From NCBI GenBank assembly GCA_951406725.2, contig OX597820.1, positions 46,996,001 to 47,060,000 on the forward strand: DNA of 64,000 nt, written 5' to 3'. Below are positions 3,090 through 56,575 of this stretch, in pieces (position 1 is the stretch's first letter; the number at the start of each line of letters is the position of its first letter). The DNA is from Octopus vulgaris. Lineage: Eukaryota. The notes under the pieces were generated by a model, which ran no database searches, was not told the origin of the DNA, and saw nothing but the letters and a program-made list of their open reading frames with translations. The translations under genes were made by a program, and so were the position numbers.

Positions 3090-3295
3090 CACAGTTCTAT
3101 ATTTAAGAGATGAGGAATCATGTACATTATTTACATTTGACGGATATTTGTCCTCATCTTGTTTTTTTTTATTAAACACAACGTTTCGGCTGATATACCA
3201 TTCAGATCACTGCTTGGAATCGAACTCGGAATCTTGGGGCTAGTAGCCCGCGCACTTAACCACTACGCCATATGCCCGTGGGTATAATAATAATG

Positions 3296-3362
<67 letters not shown>

Positions 3363-3364
3363 TG

Positions 3365-3447
<83 letters not shown>

Positions 3448-3607
3448 AATGATAATAATAATATAATGATAGATAATGATAATAATAATATCGAAAAATA
3501 CCTGGGAATGAGAAGCCAGGTTCGAAATTTCCCCAAGACATCTGCTGAAGGCTGGAGGGTATATCAGCCGAAACGTTGTATTAACAACAAACAAGATGAG
3601 GACAAAT
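3090..3607. mobile_element. Inverted-arrangement Penelope-pLTR module with tRNA-like head, (AAT)n and hammerhead (F3)
   Basis: Minus arm 3090-3285 has a tRNA-like head plus the hammerhead 3' half and tail; plus arm has (AAT)n and a hammerhead at 3537-3582 (CTGCTGA-A-GGCTG..CAGCC-GAAA-CG-TT); homologous to 11700-12045. Confidence 0.75.
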
Positions 3608-3765
3608 AACTTAGCGGTTCAGCAATAGAGACCGATAGAACAAGTACCAGGCTTTAAAAAAAATTATTGGGATCGATTCATTCGACTAAAAATTCTTCAA
3701 GATGGTGTCCCATCATGATCGCAGTCTAAAGACTGAAACAAGTAAAAGATAAGATATAAAGATAG
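3607..3765 (+). mobile_element. SINE family A, 3' part
   Basis: aacttagcggttc...gactgaaacaagtaaaagataag tail. Confidence 0.8.
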
Positions 3766-3997: not shown

Positions 3998-4205
3998 AAG
4001 CGGCAAGCTGGCAGAATCGTTAGCATGTTGGCCCAAATGCTTTGCGGTATTTCGGCCGTCTGTACATTGTTCAAATTCCGCCGAGGTTAAATTTGCTTTT
4101 CGTCCTTTCGGAGTCGATAAAATCAGAACCTGTTGAGCACTGACGTCGATGTAATCGACGTATACCTTCCCCCAGAATTGCTGGCCTTGTACCAAAATTT
4201 GAAAC
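3998..4205 (+). mobile_element. SINE family B
   Basis: ggcaagctggcagaatcgttagc (A-box-like), gttcaaattcc (B box) and the cctttcggagtcgataaaat central domain. Confidence 0.8.
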
Positions 4206-4519
4206 TGATGTGGTAAGAGTGATTGACAACACACTGACAATTCAGTGACGTCATCAAAGATCGCTGGTCACTTGGGACACTCGACGTCTATCCTCAACAA
4301 TTTACTGTTCTGGCAATATAATTTCTGTTCTGACTGCGACGTAATCGAAAAGTAGCTCCACTCTAGCTTATTAAGCACCAAAATACCTGCTTCCTGAACC
4401 AATAGAGGCGAGCACCGACGATATATTGACACGAGGCATAACTTATACTGGATAAAGGGTAAGGTCTTGCAAGTATGACACGCAAATTCGTGAAGCGTTC
4501 CACATAACTTCGTATGCGC

Positions 4520-8343: not shown

Positions 8344-9635
8344 TTCCTTTTCCTGTCTTATACTGTTCACAATTTGCACTGTCGTTACTGTCCTGTTGTT
8401 ACTATTTTTTATCCCTCTGCGAACGGATCTCAGAATTTTAATTGATTTGCTTTTCGCAGGAAGGAAAGTTTTCTTGTCGAAGATACGTCTCGCTTTTATC
8501 CTTCGAAACGTAGAGTAGATGAAAGCTTTAGCGACTGAAGAAGGGGTTTTTCCTTGTGTTAATTTGTCCTGTATTCTATTTTTTTGCTGTTTTTAATAAA
8601 TGTCCTATTCCTTTGGTTTGTGTCTATGTTTTCGTTTCTCATTGTGTTCGACGTCCTTTTTGGTGTCCTGTACTCATATATGCGTGTATATGTACATGTA
8701 GAGGTAGGTACGTACATATATGTTTAGATATATGCATATGTTTTATTTTATTTATTAATATATTATATGATGAAACGCACGCACCCCTTAATTAAGATTG
8801 TTCTTTATATCAAGTTTTTGTTCTTGATATTAACTCTCACGCGCACTCTCAACCTTTCTGTCCCATCCCTTTCTCATCCTTTATTCTTTGTTTTCCTTTT
8901 CCTCTACTTAACCTGTCTCTTCCTCTCTCTCATTCTTCACTCTCTCTCTCCCTCTCTCCATTCTTCATGGTTTCCACGCAGCCATTCCCCTTCTCCTCTC
9001 CCTTTCTCTTGCTCCTCCTCCCCCCTTCCCATCGTTCACCCGCGACGTGACTTCCGCCTTCCCGTCGTTCACCCGCGACGTCACCTCCGCTGCTGTCTCT
9101 CTGGCCTGGCTCTTTCAAGGTAATGGACGACACTCTTTTTGCTCCGCTCGTCGTCCATAAAAAATTCTGCGTTTGCAATACTTTTTTTCGTTCGGCGTCA
9201 ACAGCCCTTCTTATCTTGTTTTCCTTGTCCTGTCTTATACTGTTCACAATTTGCACTGTCGTTACTGTCCTGTTGTTACTATTTTTTATTCCTCTGCGAA
9301 AGGATCTCAGAATTTTAATTGATTTGCTTTTTGCAGGAAGGAAAGTTTTCTTGTCGAAGATACGTCTCGCTTTTATCCTTCGAAACGTAGAGTAGATGAA
9401 AGCTTTAGCGACTGAAGAAGGGGTTTTTCCTTGTGTTAATTTGTCTTGTATTCTATATTTTGCTGTTTTTAATAAATGTCCAGTTCCTTTGGTTTGTGTC
9501 TATGTTTTCGTTTCTCATTGTGTTCGACGTCCTTTTTGGTGTCCTGTACTCATATATGCGTGTATATGTACATGTAGAGGTAGATACGTACATATATGTT
9601 TATATATATGCATATGTTTTATTTTATTTATTAAT
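8343..9635 (+). mobile_element. Non-coding element with about 420-bp direct terminal repeats, bounded by (TA)n
   Basis: 8343-8760 is nearly identical to 9218-9635 (period about 875 bp); relatives at about 23750-24090, 54080-54159 (minus) and 59030-59250. Confidence 0.75.
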
Positions 9636-10116: not shown

Positions 10117-10275
10117 ATGTATATATATACAGTTTCCGTCTACCAAATCCACTCACAAGGCTTTGATCGGTCCGAGGCTATAGTAGAAGACACTTGGTCA
10201 AGGTGCCACGCAGTGGGACTGAACCCGGAACCATGTGGCTGGTAAGCAAGCTACTTACCATATACCCACTCCTAC
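9865..10275 (-). mobile_element. SINE family A with expanded internal CA/TA tract
   Basis: cagtttccgtctaccaaatccactcacaagg...gggactgaacccggaaccatgtgg. Confidence 0.85.
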
Positions 10276-10339
10276 ACTTACATATATAAATTTCAAAAAT
10301 TTTTAATTGTTTCAGCTTCAAAGCTGCGGTCATACTACG

Positions 10340-10394: not shown

Positions 10395-10842
10395 CAACAA
10401 AACACACACACGAGACATATACACGCACACACATATTCCTTCTTGTTTCTGACCTGTGACTCGCTATTGCTGCTTGCCACTAGCCTTCGCCCACCATATA
10501 CACACATACACACACACGCACACACTCACACACACACCCTTGTCATCTCGCACACCGTTGTTTACCATTCCTTCTTTTTCCGCTCTCTTGTCTTTGAAAA
10601 CCTGCTCCCTCTTGTTTACCACTTCCGCCTTTTCAGTATGTTGACCTCGTGAAAACCACTTGCATTTTTTTTCCCTCTGTCCTCCCACCTCGGGATCTTA
10701 CTTTCTCCTATGTTTCCGACGAAGAGCTCCGCTCGAAACGTCATACCCTCCTTCTTCCCTTTTTTCCTGAGCGCCCAATAATACTTTATTTGTTCCACAT
10801 CCTCGCGTTGTTGTCTTTTTGTTTTCTTGTTTGGATTAACTT
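10395..10842 (+). mobile_element. Penelope-pLTR-like unit, hammerhead family F2
   Basis: GTTT-CCGACGA-A-GAGC tcc GCTC-GAAA-CG-TC-ATAC at 10712-10746; 3' end runs into (TA)n; homologous to 56390-56575. Confidence 0.7.
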
Positions 10843-10869: not shown

Positions 10870-11045
10870 ACTTTTATTTTTTTCTTTTATTCTTTTATTT
10901 GTTTCAGCCATTTGACTGCAGCCATACTGGAACACCACTTTAGTCGAGCAAATCGATCCCAGGACTTTGTAAGCTTAGTACTTATTCTATCGGTCTCTTT
11001 TACCGAAACGCTGAGTTACAGGGCCGCAAACAAACCAACGTCGCT
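10870..11045 (-). mobile_element. SINE family A, 3' part
   Basis: tgtttcagccatttgactgcagccatactgg...tacttattctatcggtctctt. Confidence 0.8.
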
Positions 11046-11049
11046 ACTT

Positions 11050-11676
11050 AAAAAAAATAAGTAGCGATCGTAATACCCACCACGAAGAAATGATCAAACT
11101 CTGTAACAATCTATTAAGCAGCAACTACTCCCAAAGCATACTATCCACTCCAATTATAAAGAAAAGAGAGGATGAAACCAATGAACTGTCCACAGTCTGT
11201 CTACCCTACGTGAAAGGCCTCTTCGAAAAGATACAAAAGATATGCGTCCCATATGACATCAGGACAGTATTCAAGAGTAATACAACACTTCGCAAATATC
11301 TCCTCCGAGTAAAACCACCAATAGAAGAGAATATGACCAAAAACTGCGTGTACTCCATCCCATGCAGCTGTGGTAAGTTATACAAAGGCGAAACATGCCG
11401 TCCCTCAAAATAAGGGTAGAAGAACATCGCCAAGCTGTGACACGAGATGATATTGATAAATCGGGTATAGCTGATCTTGTATGGAAAAATGGAGACCACG
11501 TTTCTCTGTCGGATGAAGTTAAAATAATAGACAGAGAACACCACTGGAAAATACGAAAACTAAAAGAAGTAGCAGTTATGCTAGGACGCAACAACCTCCT
11601 TAGCAGACTGAGTGCAAATATGAATAGCACATGGGAACCGGTATTAAGGAAGGATAGGAAAATATTAGATGTATAA
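11050..11676 (+). pseudogene. Penelope-like element C-terminus (RT thumb plus GIY-YIG endonuclease), frameshifted
   Basis: LPYVKGLFEKI...NCVYSIPCSCGKLYKGETCR, frameshift near 11400, then LKIRVEEH...SGIADLV...H...KLKE: GIY-YIG motifs with the CCHH-like residues typical of the Penelope/Poseidon group. Confidence 0.9.
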
Positions 11677-11699
11677 GCCCTAAAATTCACTCCATAATT

Positions 11700-11761
11700 G
11701 CCCACGAGCAAATGGCGTAGTGGCTAAGAGCGGGGCTACTAACCCCATGATTCCGAGTTCG

Positions 11762-11762
<1 letters not shown>
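11700..11762 (+). promoter_or_regulatory. tRNA-like segment (Pol III A and B boxes) in the Penelope 3' repeat
   Basis: TGGCGTAGTGG A box at 11713-11723, anticodon-arm-like ggggctactaacccc, GAGTTCG B-box-like; a second copy at 3205-3285 (minus) has GAGTTCGATTCC. Confidence 0.65.
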
Positions 11763-11830
<68 letters not shown>

Positions 11831-11831
11831 T

Positions 11832-11864
<33 letters not shown>

Positions 11865-11944
11865 AATAATAATAATAATAATAATAACAACAACACATCG
11901 AAAATTACCTTAGGAATGAGAACCCAGGTTTGAAATTTCCCCAA

Positions 11945-11990
11945 GACACCCGATGAAGGCTGGAGGGTATATCAGCCGAAACGTTGTGTT
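11945..11990 (+). ncRNA. Minimal type I hammerhead ribozyme motif (F3)
   Basis: GACAC-CCGATGA-A-GGCTG gagggtatat CAGCC-GAAA-CG-TT-GTGTT; 5-bp stem I, 5-bp stem II, palindromic ACGT stem III; downstream of the GIY-YIG ORF. Confidence 0.8.
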
Positions 11991-12129
11991 AACAAGAAAC
12001 ATGATGAGGACAAATATCCGTCAAATGTAAATAATGTAAATAATGTGATCCTAATCTTCAGCCATTTTGAATTTCATGTAACTCCCAATAAATGTGTTGA
12101 ACGTCCTTCTCTCGTTTGTCCACTCACTC

Positions 12130-15092: not shown

Positions 15093-15678
15093 CTACTCTA
15101 AACGCTTTGCAACGTTTGTTTTTGAAAGTAGTGATTTTCTGATTGCTGCCCTCCCGTGAAATACAGCTTTGTCCAGCTCCCGGCGAAGAATTTTTCTGAA
15201 AACTGGATTCTTGAGGTGGTCATTAAGCTGTGCAGTAATTTTAGGAGCTGTCCTTTTGTGATCCTTTCTAACAATTTGTGTAAGAGTCTGATGGTCCCTA
15301 TCTGAAAGTTTTGGTTTTCTTCCGTTGTTTTGTTTCGGCCAAGAGATTTTTCTCCACTTTCTCAAAAGCTGTCATTACTTTCGAGACAGTAATTCTTGAT
15401 ACACCAAACAATTCGGCTGCTTTCGTTACGCTAGCGCCTGCCATACGAGCAGCAACAATTTAACCTCTTTGAAAGTTCGATAGATCTGTCATTTTAATGA
15501 ATTTTAATAACATTTTTCTGATGATATCTGAAAAGAAACAGCAATTTTAGCAAAACATATTAAGCAACACTAATAGTAAATAAAAAAACATAAAAATAAA
15601 CAAGCTTTTGGCGGTTTTATAAATACTTCAAAATTATGACGCCATGATGCCAGGTGTTTCCATTATTTTGTCCAACCC

Positions 15679-15681
<3 letters not shown>
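15093..15681 (-). mobile_element. Tc1-like transposon left end with N-terminal transposase relic
   Basis: TIR TA-CAGGGGTTGGACAAAATAATGGAAAC; from about 15492 MTDLSNFQRG*IVAARMAGASVTKAAELFGVSRITVSKV...GRKPKLSDRD...RRELDK (paired-like HTH and GRPR-like motif). Confidence 0.9.
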
Positions 15682-15732
<51 letters not shown>

Positions 15733-15776
15733 GGATTGGACAAAATAATGGAAACACCTGGCATCATGGCGTCATA

Positions 15777-23445: not shown

Positions 23446-24088
23446 GTTCTTCTACCTTTCTGTTTATCTCTCCGACTCTTTCCCTATTCTTCTCCTCTCC
23501 CCTTCACCGTTACCTCTCTCTCTCTCTCTCTCTCACTCTTCCTCCTTGACTCTCTCGTTGCTCACACGTGACGAAAGGTCAACTATCTTTCTTTCTTCCT
23601 CTTCCTTCCTAAAGACAAGACGTGCTTTTATCTGTCTCTTCTCAAAACTCATTTTTCCACCGTTCATTATCTTCACATCATCTTGGCTTAACAGCCCTCA
23701 CCGTTTGTTTTTACTGTTTTGTTCTCACTGTCCTGTTTTTGTTACCACTTTCACCCTCCGCAAACAATCCCAAATTTTATTTCATTTGCTTTGCGGGAAG
23801 GATTGTTTTAACGAAGTCGCGTATTGTCCTTACCTTCGAGACGCGCAGTAGATAAAACAGGGGACAACTGATGAATGAAATGTTCTTTATGTTGCATGTC
23901 TCGTTTTTTTGGGGGTTTGTTTTTTTTCGTTGTTCAAAAAAAGTTCGTTTTTTATGTTTTTTTATGTTTTCGTCTCTCATTGTGTCTACGTTTTTTTTAC
24001 GTCCTGTACCCATATATGCATGTATATATGTACATATATATGTAGGTATGTACATATATGTATGTATACATGCATATATTTATATATG

Positions 24089-32614: not shown

Positions 32615-32810
32615 TTTGAAATTTACAGAAAAACAACAGGCGAAGACAGGTGTATGAACAACAAGCAGGTGTATTAGTTTGACGCTCGGAAAAGTGGAAA
32701 AGTCTTTTACGTTTCGAGCCTGCGCTCCTCAACAGGAAGGAATGAGAGAAAATAAACAGAGAGAATAAAAAGAAAAAAATTGTGGATTTCGCGGTCAAGC
32801 ATATCGACTC
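32615..32810 (-). mobile_element. Hammerhead F1 unit
   Basis: Reverse complement CTGTTGA-G-GAGC gcag GCTC-GAAA-CG-TA-AAAG at 32704-32739. Confidence 0.7.
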
Positions 32811-32874
32811 ATATATATATATATATATATATATATGAGTCGATATGCTTGACCGCTAAATCAACAATTTTTTT

Positions 32875-56259: not shown

Positions 56260-56575
<316 letters not shown>

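Follow-up and report, generated by a model that had tools for sequence, protein, structure and literature searches.

A tRNA-like segment is a fixed part of the pLTR of a Penelope/Poseidon-type retrotransposon family in Octopus vulgaris, and the resulting composite is real and stable genome-wide. It is represented at 11050-12045 and at 3090-3607 of a 64,000-nucleotide stretch of contig OX597820.1 (the window), and it was followed through 2.8 Gb of genome sequence on 227 contigs. On balance, we favor a reading in which this tRNA-Arg-like segment, the head, serves as a Pol III promoter, and short copies arise when the enzyme encoded by the element reverse-transcribes the initial ~350 nt of the RNA. 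The parts of this reading differ in strength: it is very probable that RNAs starting at the head are mobilized by the PLE, and likely, judging from the sequence, that Pol III initiates in the head, and the idea that Pol III also makes the element's mRNA is put forward tentatively.

By definition, a SINE is a Pol III element that relies on the enzyme of a LINE, and autonomous retrotransposons are assumed to depend on Pol II (or on Pol I for R2). A tRNA promoter residing inside an autonomous Penelope would, by means of the Penelope machinery, have given rise to tens of thousands of SINE-like insertions, which would extend SINE-type mobilization to a third retrotransposon subclass and outline a direct route for the birth of a SINE from the 5' end of its own partner. 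It would also mean that some octopus repeats annotated as SINEs are Penelope pLTRs, and that the fixed 5' ends record in the genome where transcription starts, information that exists for very few PLEs. Should Pol III make the mRNA as well, the family would supply a natural, long, Pol III-derived coding transcript and represent a LINE and a SINE in one element.

The tRNA-like head as a fixed part of the Penelope unit

The locus at 11050-12045, on the plus strand, comprises an ORF stop, a tRNA-like A/B-box segment, (AAT/AAC)n, a hammerhead and a tail, in the order given by an earlier reading of the window from its letters only (the sequence-only reading). It opens with the 3' part of a Penelope ORF (11050..11676), which covers the thumb and a GIY-YIG-type endonuclease and is 5'-truncated, with a fold-back in the form of a small inverted repeat at 11042..11066. 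Residues 640-846 of P0001 match at 11051-11661 in two frames (tblastn, E 4e-42), with a frameshift near 11404, and the ORF ends with a TAA stop at 11674-11676. What had been called a GIY-YIG ORF is indeed the 3' end of a Penelope ORF, the endonuclease being recognizable only through alignment with P0006, which carries PF01541; Pfam gave no GIY-YIG match on the ORF fragments of the window. The stop is followed by a constant linker of 29 nt (11677..11705; 865 exact 20-mer matches genome-wide), whose last ~6 nt are likely the region of transcription start, and by the head (11706..11762, +1 at 11706), with the A box at 11713-11724 and a B box at 11755-11762 that is shortened because this copy lacks the last ~14 nt of the head. 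The unit has as its 5' UTR an (AAT/AAC)n spacer, variable in length, at 11763..11895. The first ATG after the spacer, at 11916, begins a copy of the ORF N-terminus (11916..12045; tblastn with the P0001 N-terminus, 53% identity, E 9e-8), which in the window has a premature stop at codon 6 and ends at the proximal (short) of two RT start sites recognized from bimodal 3' ends. A minimal type I hammerhead lies within it at 11945..11990, exactly where one had been proposed, with a predicted cut after 11985 according to column counts, an extra base between positions 9 and 10.1 and a loopless palindromic helix III; its core is mutated at position 4, which is C where the family has U in 137/157. A second B-box-like motif, in the majority form of the family, is found within the first ORF codons (11926-11937) and could, by its sequence, be an alternative TFIIIC site. 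ARAGORN did not recognize the head as a tRNA, and Rfam recognized neither the head nor the hammerhead (in one search, among the best 150 of 342 weak matches).

The sequence-only reading had placed the same parts, free of any ORF, at 3090-3607. All of them are present there, in a head-to-head inversion that is not colinear with 11050-12045. In the minus-strand arm, a complete head (3203..3282, 88.7% identical to the head at 11700) with its 5' end at about position -5 is fused, across an internal deletion, with the hammerhead's 3' half and a long tail (3091..3199), which by pairwise comparison reaches the distal RT start site. The direct arm, on the plus strand, consists of (AAT)n (3284..3489) and a body (3490..3608, 90.8% identical to 11897-12016) with a hammerhead at 3537-3582 whose core A6 is mutated to C, and an unrelated repeat family adjoins it immediately. 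Nor is the locus strictly ORF-free, its hammerhead and tail being the first codons of the Penelope ORF.

Other repeats are plentiful in the window, and the output of a general repeat search was dominated by microsatellites. At 10716, 48190 and 62805 (plus strand) and at 56525 (minus strand) lie minimal hammerhead motifs that belong to one or more unrelated repeat families, probably pLTRs of other Penelope families. A local duplication (8353-8744 and 9230-9620, 97% identical) involves a ~390-nt repeat with degenerate hammerhead-like motifs, diverged relatives of which lie at 23727, 23971, 54080 and 59030. Abundant tRNA-headed SINE-like repeats, exemplified by 10130-10290, 10870-11045, 3609-3760 and 4040-4210 and present in up to ~15 copies each, are possibly known CORE-type octopus SINEs, and near-perfect, MITE-like palindromes with a (TA)n center are found at 15641-15770 and 32777-32872.

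An exact 33-mer of the head has 924 matches in the genome and its reversed control has none, so the head is not a chance resemblance. It directly follows the ORF stop in 29 of 30 loci selected by their ORF (a set that includes 8 near-identical copies on contig C31), and it follows the linker in all 30 position-ordered linker loci, 28 of which also have the body. Genome-wide co-occurrence of head and body, proposed earlier as a check on a stable composite, was confirmed in the reverse direction as well, the same body following in 23/28 and 24/30 position-ordered head matches. The remaining 5/28 and 6/30 have no body within 1.5 kb, which would be expected if the head had entered Penelope copies as one or more independent SINE insertions. 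We regard such an origin as scarcely credible, since the junction is identical in all linker loci and duplications are seen around whole units. In five head loci, the body is found further downstream, behind another repeat inserted in the (AAT)n spacer, and such insertions would account for most of the missing bodies. At L223, L229, L232, L234 and L245, the inserted sequences are 3' ends of other retroelements, cases that suggest a hotspot of insertion in the spacer. Of 39 two-armed units, 11 are bracketed by direct repeats of 11-15 nt (in one case a microsatellite match); shuffled pairings yield direct repeats of at least 10 nt in 0.6%. No duplication around the head alone was seen in the loci examined. 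The proposal that the head might occur mostly with other bodies and carry its own TSD is thus not borne out, and recurrent insertion of the head is refuted by the shared junctions, the 29/30 linkage to the ORF stop and the whole-unit duplications. A single ancestral SINE insertion into the pLTR is a plausible origin of the head. On contig C31, one insertion is repeated together with its flanks at no fewer than eight places (L073, L074, L078-L080, L083, L087 and L090), pointing to a large segmental or satellite array.

Both A and B boxes are conserved across 211 heads, and in a comparison with 33 tRNA genes of the genome (a set without any Arg-ACG gene) the three best matches are tRNA-Arg (scores 36-38; next 34; shuffled 23-24), on which grounds the head is regarded as tRNA-derived. 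Single-strand folding gave no significant z-scores for head or hammerhead and no cloverleaf for the head. The (AAT)n is longer in ORF-less copies (median 53 nt) than in ORF-linked ones (median 29 nt). In X20, a run labeled as another organism, contigs connect the ORF end through the linker to the head, and loose ends at about head +3 are seen in 34 contigs; this evidence consists of contigs, which carry no information on starts, strand or level. Given the bridging contigs, the composite is probably older than a single species.

Copies of the 5' part of the ORF have body and tail directly upstream, and upstream of the ORF in L348 and L349 the succession of ORF end, linker, head, spacer and body forms partial tandems. 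With direct pLTRs before the ORF, including the tandems L114/L348 and L132/L349, the order of the unit is shown to be ORF stop, linker, head, (AAT)n, ORF start with overlapping hammerhead, tail and the rest of the ORF, in partial tandems. The ORF is ~2.5 kb long. Its RT is recognized as PF00078 (E 2.8e-10 in L108), and a 569-aa open stretch in L346 aligns end to end with P0006 (PF00078 + PF01541; E 3e-70); Pfam gave no direct GIY-YIG domain match on family fragments, so the endonuclease call relies on this alignment. In translation, hammerhead and tail continue the frame of the RT ORF and correspond to the N-terminus of P0001, a relative with 54% identity (46-48% over residues 18-140, E 1e-32). 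In L350, tblastn aligns residues 18-140 of P0001 at 46% identity (E 8e-33) in frame into the RT ORF; by translation, what had been described as hammerhead and tail is the N-terminus of the element's own ORF. An ATG located 38 nt after the tail was rejected as the ORF start because it is out of frame and the reading frame extends back through the hammerhead.

By minimal-hammerhead criteria as in the available part of PMC4209133, the family columns predict a ribozyme, with the core, the G10.1-C11.1 pair, an extra base after A9 and a palindromic 15.2-16.2; stems I and II appear in the MFE fold, with a z of only -1.8. The family shares with EN+ PLEs an RT followed by a C-terminal endonuclease (the latter by the P0006 alignment) in a single ORF, pLTRs from partial tandems, inverted 5' arms, an optional 30-40-nt tail and a minimal hammerhead (predicted). 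By inspection, the interval between RT and EN of L346 contains no extra Cys motif, where Neptune and Nematis carry a Zn-finger linker. The family is an EN+ PLE, most likely of the Penelope/Poseidon type. Its copies differ by 5-8% from the column majority, and at this divergence activity has probably ceased. None of the copies examined has an intact ORF. Another Penelope-like family (L341-L345), which is GC-rich and served as a control, has open frames of 800-900 codons, a long T run immediately after the stop and no tRNA-like head.

Short copies and their mobilization

Exact 20-mers of the head occur 5148 times genome-wide, and those of the linker 865 times. Copies without the ORF exceed ORF-linked ones by at least 6:1, with sampled loci suggesting a still larger excess, and the copy number is roughly estimated at ~30,000 (9 of 80 random 10-kb stretches). 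Their 5' ends were mapped, as the sequence-only reading had proposed, in two chromosome-ordered samples chosen blind to the 5' end, which together comprise 55 insertions after removal of five duplicates; sampling by exact matches favors younger copies. Ends were called by pairwise comparison with four natural copies, HMM local alignments having over-extended them. Fifty of the 55 insertions reach head +8, and 39 of these start within 8 nt of the tRNA +1 (-8..+8), 47 start in -20..+8 and two reach the ORF. At the truncation rate of the ORF (0.0022-0.0025 per nt), ~2 starts would be expected in -8..+8, so that the clustering has P 4e-45, or 3e-23 at four times that rate. In a larger, partly overlapping set, 59/107 head segments end in -8..+6 and 33/107 at +7..+50. 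Since most short copies begin at the tRNA segment, Pol III is likely the element's promoter.

The head contains a natural palindrome at -7..+5 (5-bp stem), at which many junctions are fold-backs, as are, by eye, most of the calls at -13 to -19, and the palindrome could promote fold-back there whatever the promoter. With truncation raised within the head, this pattern agrees with the view that an old tRNA-SINE fragment rides passively in a pLTR transcribed by Pol II from upstream, and that the 5' ends reflect RT stalling or fold-back at the palindrome or an RNase P-like cut. We consider this quite improbable: starts at -7..+6, next to unrelated sequence, are also frequent among non-inverted copies and the 5-bp stem is weak, the ends often lie upstream of +1, unlike those of an RNase P cut, in a head without a cloverleaf, and the depletion of terminators described below would go unexplained. 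A pile-up of 5' ends at the hammerhead cut, plausible by eye, proved weak (6/173 body segments start within 12 nt after the cut).

At the other end, the 3' ends of 173 body segments are bimodal, with ~30 nt between the modes (short in 72, long in 88, cut in 13), and in 37/53 divergent arm pairs a long tail is paired with a short one, a pairing described as a PLE trait in the available part of PMC8557442. The cut site of the hammerhead is read through in 141/173 body segments, so uncleaved RNA is probably the usual template.

The second possibility raised by the sequence-only reading was a SINE mobilized by the Penelope RT. The short copies do start at the tRNA head and are very probably mobilized by Penelope; they lack diagnostic variants and stop at RT start sites inside the ORF N-terminus. 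Among 89 ORF-linked and 122 ORF-less heads and 72 and 98 bodies, respectively, no diagnostic column was found (best p 0.0085 over ~270 columns). A true SINE, Pol III-transcribed from ORF-less copies and re-amplified in trans by the Penelope protein, would be in keeping with the retention of A and B boxes in these copies, with their excess, with the proximal RT start site retained in long-tail copies, and with their slightly lower divergence (head 6.0% vs 7.7%, body 4.8% vs 6.0%, in samples chosen differently). This is nevertheless unlikely, given the absence of private variants, the lack of an own terminator in ORF-less copies and their ends at RT start sites, as the anole element requires RNA further into the ORF (the first 172 nt; PMC11167929, available part). 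Set beside the definition of SINEs, which asks for transcription by Pol III from within the element, a partner LINE for reverse transcription and a simple-repeat tail (PMC3531059, as far as available), the copies are short enough (<700 bp, ~350 nt) and have a tRNA-derived head with A and B boxes, and their 3' part is PLE ORF sequence with a PLE tail signature instead of a LINE-partner sequence and a simple-repeat tail. ORF-less copies are single or head-to-head in the loci examined, without the head-to-tail arrays of retrozymes. Because they have no diagnostic variants of their own and end at RT start sites in the ORF N-terminus, the short copies look like solo-pLTR products of an autonomous element's RNA, not like a self-propagating SINE lineage. 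Of the two readings offered earlier, the better fit is the PLE with a captured Pol III promoter in its pLTR, with Pol III transcription deduced from the sequence.

In the mechanism that we propose for this promoter-bearing pLTR, TFIIIC and Pol III would start transcription 5-7 nt upstream of the tRNA +1. By analogy with the anole Poseidon (PMC11167929, available part), the PLE protein would nick AT-rich DNA and initiate reverse transcription from two internal sites, both within the N-terminal part of the ORF. A start at the 5' copy would lead to run-off at the RNA 5' end and thus to a solo pLTR such as 3090-3607, and a start at the downstream copy would produce 5'-truncated, ORF-bearing copies such as 11050-12045. 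The template would mostly be uncleaved RNA, hammerhead cleavage being expected to remove the start codon, and at the end of the RNA the cDNA would often fold back on the palindrome. The least certain step is that the same Pol III transcript would run through an ORF free of TTTT and be translated.

Terminators and the polymerase of the coding transcript

Pol III transcripts stop at runs of at least four T. No column-majority TTTT exists in 2,249 ORF positions, in the head or in the body. Across 119 open segments, TTTT in the ORF amounts to 0.26 of the expectation from synonymous codon shuffling; the control values are 1.09 for five other retroelement ORFs of the genome and a pooled 1.07 for 67 ORFs of other PLEs, taken from metagenome contigs, and 2 of 65 testable PLE ORFs are as low. 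Between stop and hammerhead, TTTT occurs in 4/71 family copies vs 14/16 other PLEs, and 24/27 other PLEs have it in the first 250 nt of the 3' region. No A/B pattern was detected in 27 other PLE 3' regions, with a pattern whose sensitivity is 42/89 (~47%). Two PLE ORFs of other organisms (L450 and L494) have no TTTT in 1.6-1.9 kb and no A/B pattern after their stops. As the family copies share ancestry, the depletion in the ORF counts as one event; for a single lineage, 0 conserved ORF runs vs 3.1 expected corresponds to a Poisson P of ~0.04. Runs of A5 are also depleted (0.67), and a codon-shuffle test on the single copy L346 showed no depletion (3 TTTT vs 3.1 expected).

The depletion extends over pLTR and ORF, so Pol III may also make the mRNA. 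We consider it possible, and somewhat doubtful, that the element is autonomous in this full sense, with a TTTT-purged ORF transcribed by Pol III, cap-independent translation via an unstructured (AAT)n leader and the shedding of SINE-like solo promoters, as its sequence would allow. Three of 30 copies with the ORF start reach head +8; L124 starts at +1 and extends past the tail region into the ORF by 295 nt or more, and the other two continue into the ORF of the previous unit. Neither a full-length copy starting at +1 nor a terminator after the tail was found.

Uncapped Pol III RNA is poorly translated, a point in favor of a division of labor in which Pol III, starting from the head, makes short RNAs for solo copies and the coding mRNA comes from Pol II, through a pLTR promoter or host read-through. 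We would place this alternative, which differs from the proposed mechanism only in the polymerase of the mRNA, somewhat below an even chance. It agrees with the two of three long copies that run through the head from upstream, and with the TSS and intron in the pLTR of D. virilis Penelope and Chlamys-3 (PMC8557442, available part); Kojima, in the accessible part of PMC10886601, regards Pol III as too weakly processive for autonomous elements. Against it stand the depletion of TTTT over ~2.7 kb, which it does not explain, the missing terminator after the tail and the run of L124 from +1 into the ORF.

Comparison with known systems

The head invites comparison with the octopus SINEs OK, OR1 and OR2, which Ohshima and Okada reportedly described in 1994 as tRNA-derived, OR1 and OR2 being related to tRNA-Arg. 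In the available parts of PMC4824008 (OR1) and PMC4758252 (OR2), these are called CORE-SINEs; in the present family, (AAT)n and PLE coding sequence come directly after the head, a distinction of description only. No such element is mentioned in the parts available of the octopus repeat annotations PMC13282606 and PMC8967140. A literature search, with Repbase Reports, Dfam and most subscription papers outside its scope and prior annotation in repeat libraries therefore possible, returned neither a tRNA head in a PLE pLTR nor a PLE-mobilized SINE.

Poseidon of Anolis carolinensis (PAc; PMC11167929, available part) likewise has a single RT-EN ORF, partial-tandem pLTRs, a hammerhead overlapping the ORF start, two RT start sites within the N-terminal part of the ORF that enclose an optional tail of 30-40 nt, inverted 5' arms and an uncleaved RNA template. 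That part mentions neither a tRNA-like head nor a Pol III promoter for PAc, in contrast to the octopus family, and unlike PAc, most octopus copies are solo pLTRs with a fixed 5' end. SM-alpha and Sj-alpha of Schistosoma (PMC6765202 and PMC8490949, available parts) also combine a Pol III-type promoter with a type I hammerhead downstream; these are non-coding and often tandem, with no RT partner named there, whereas in octopus the hammerhead belongs to the ORF of a PLE, which is itself the partner. Animal non-LTR retrozymes (PMC7229834 and bioRxiv 10.64898/2026.07.22.740005, available parts) are, like the short copies, non-coding PLE pLTR derivatives with type I hammerheads; they are defined as head-to-tail tandem arrays and no tRNA or Pol III head is mentioned in those parts, whereas the octopus copies occur dispersed, singly or as inverted pairs, with a 5' end defined by the tRNA segment.

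A parallel for the promoter itself is offered by TRIMp3 (Cassandra, Helenus and Ajax), which count with SM-alpha and the retrozymes, all of them non-coding, among the nearest analogues and which, according to the accessible part of PMC10886601, have a tRNA- or 5S-derived Pol III promoter in the terminal repeat, probably from a SINE insertion. TRIMp3 are non-autonomous LTR elements whose autonomous partners are expected to depend on Pol II, whereas the octopus head resides in the repeat of an autonomous, coding element of another subclass. In place of the two LTRs, PBS, PPT, 4-5-bp TSD and non-coding nature of TRIMp3, the octopus family presents a coding PLE pLTR and duplications of 11-15 nt.

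R2 is co-transcribed with rDNA by Pol I and freed by an HDV-like ribozyme. Its resemblance to the octopus family would be that of a protein-coding retrotransposon that uses a polymerase other than Pol II and has a 5' ribozyme (PMC6765202, available part); unlike in R2, the octopus promoter would be an internal Pol III promoter and cleavage by the hammerhead would remove the start codon.
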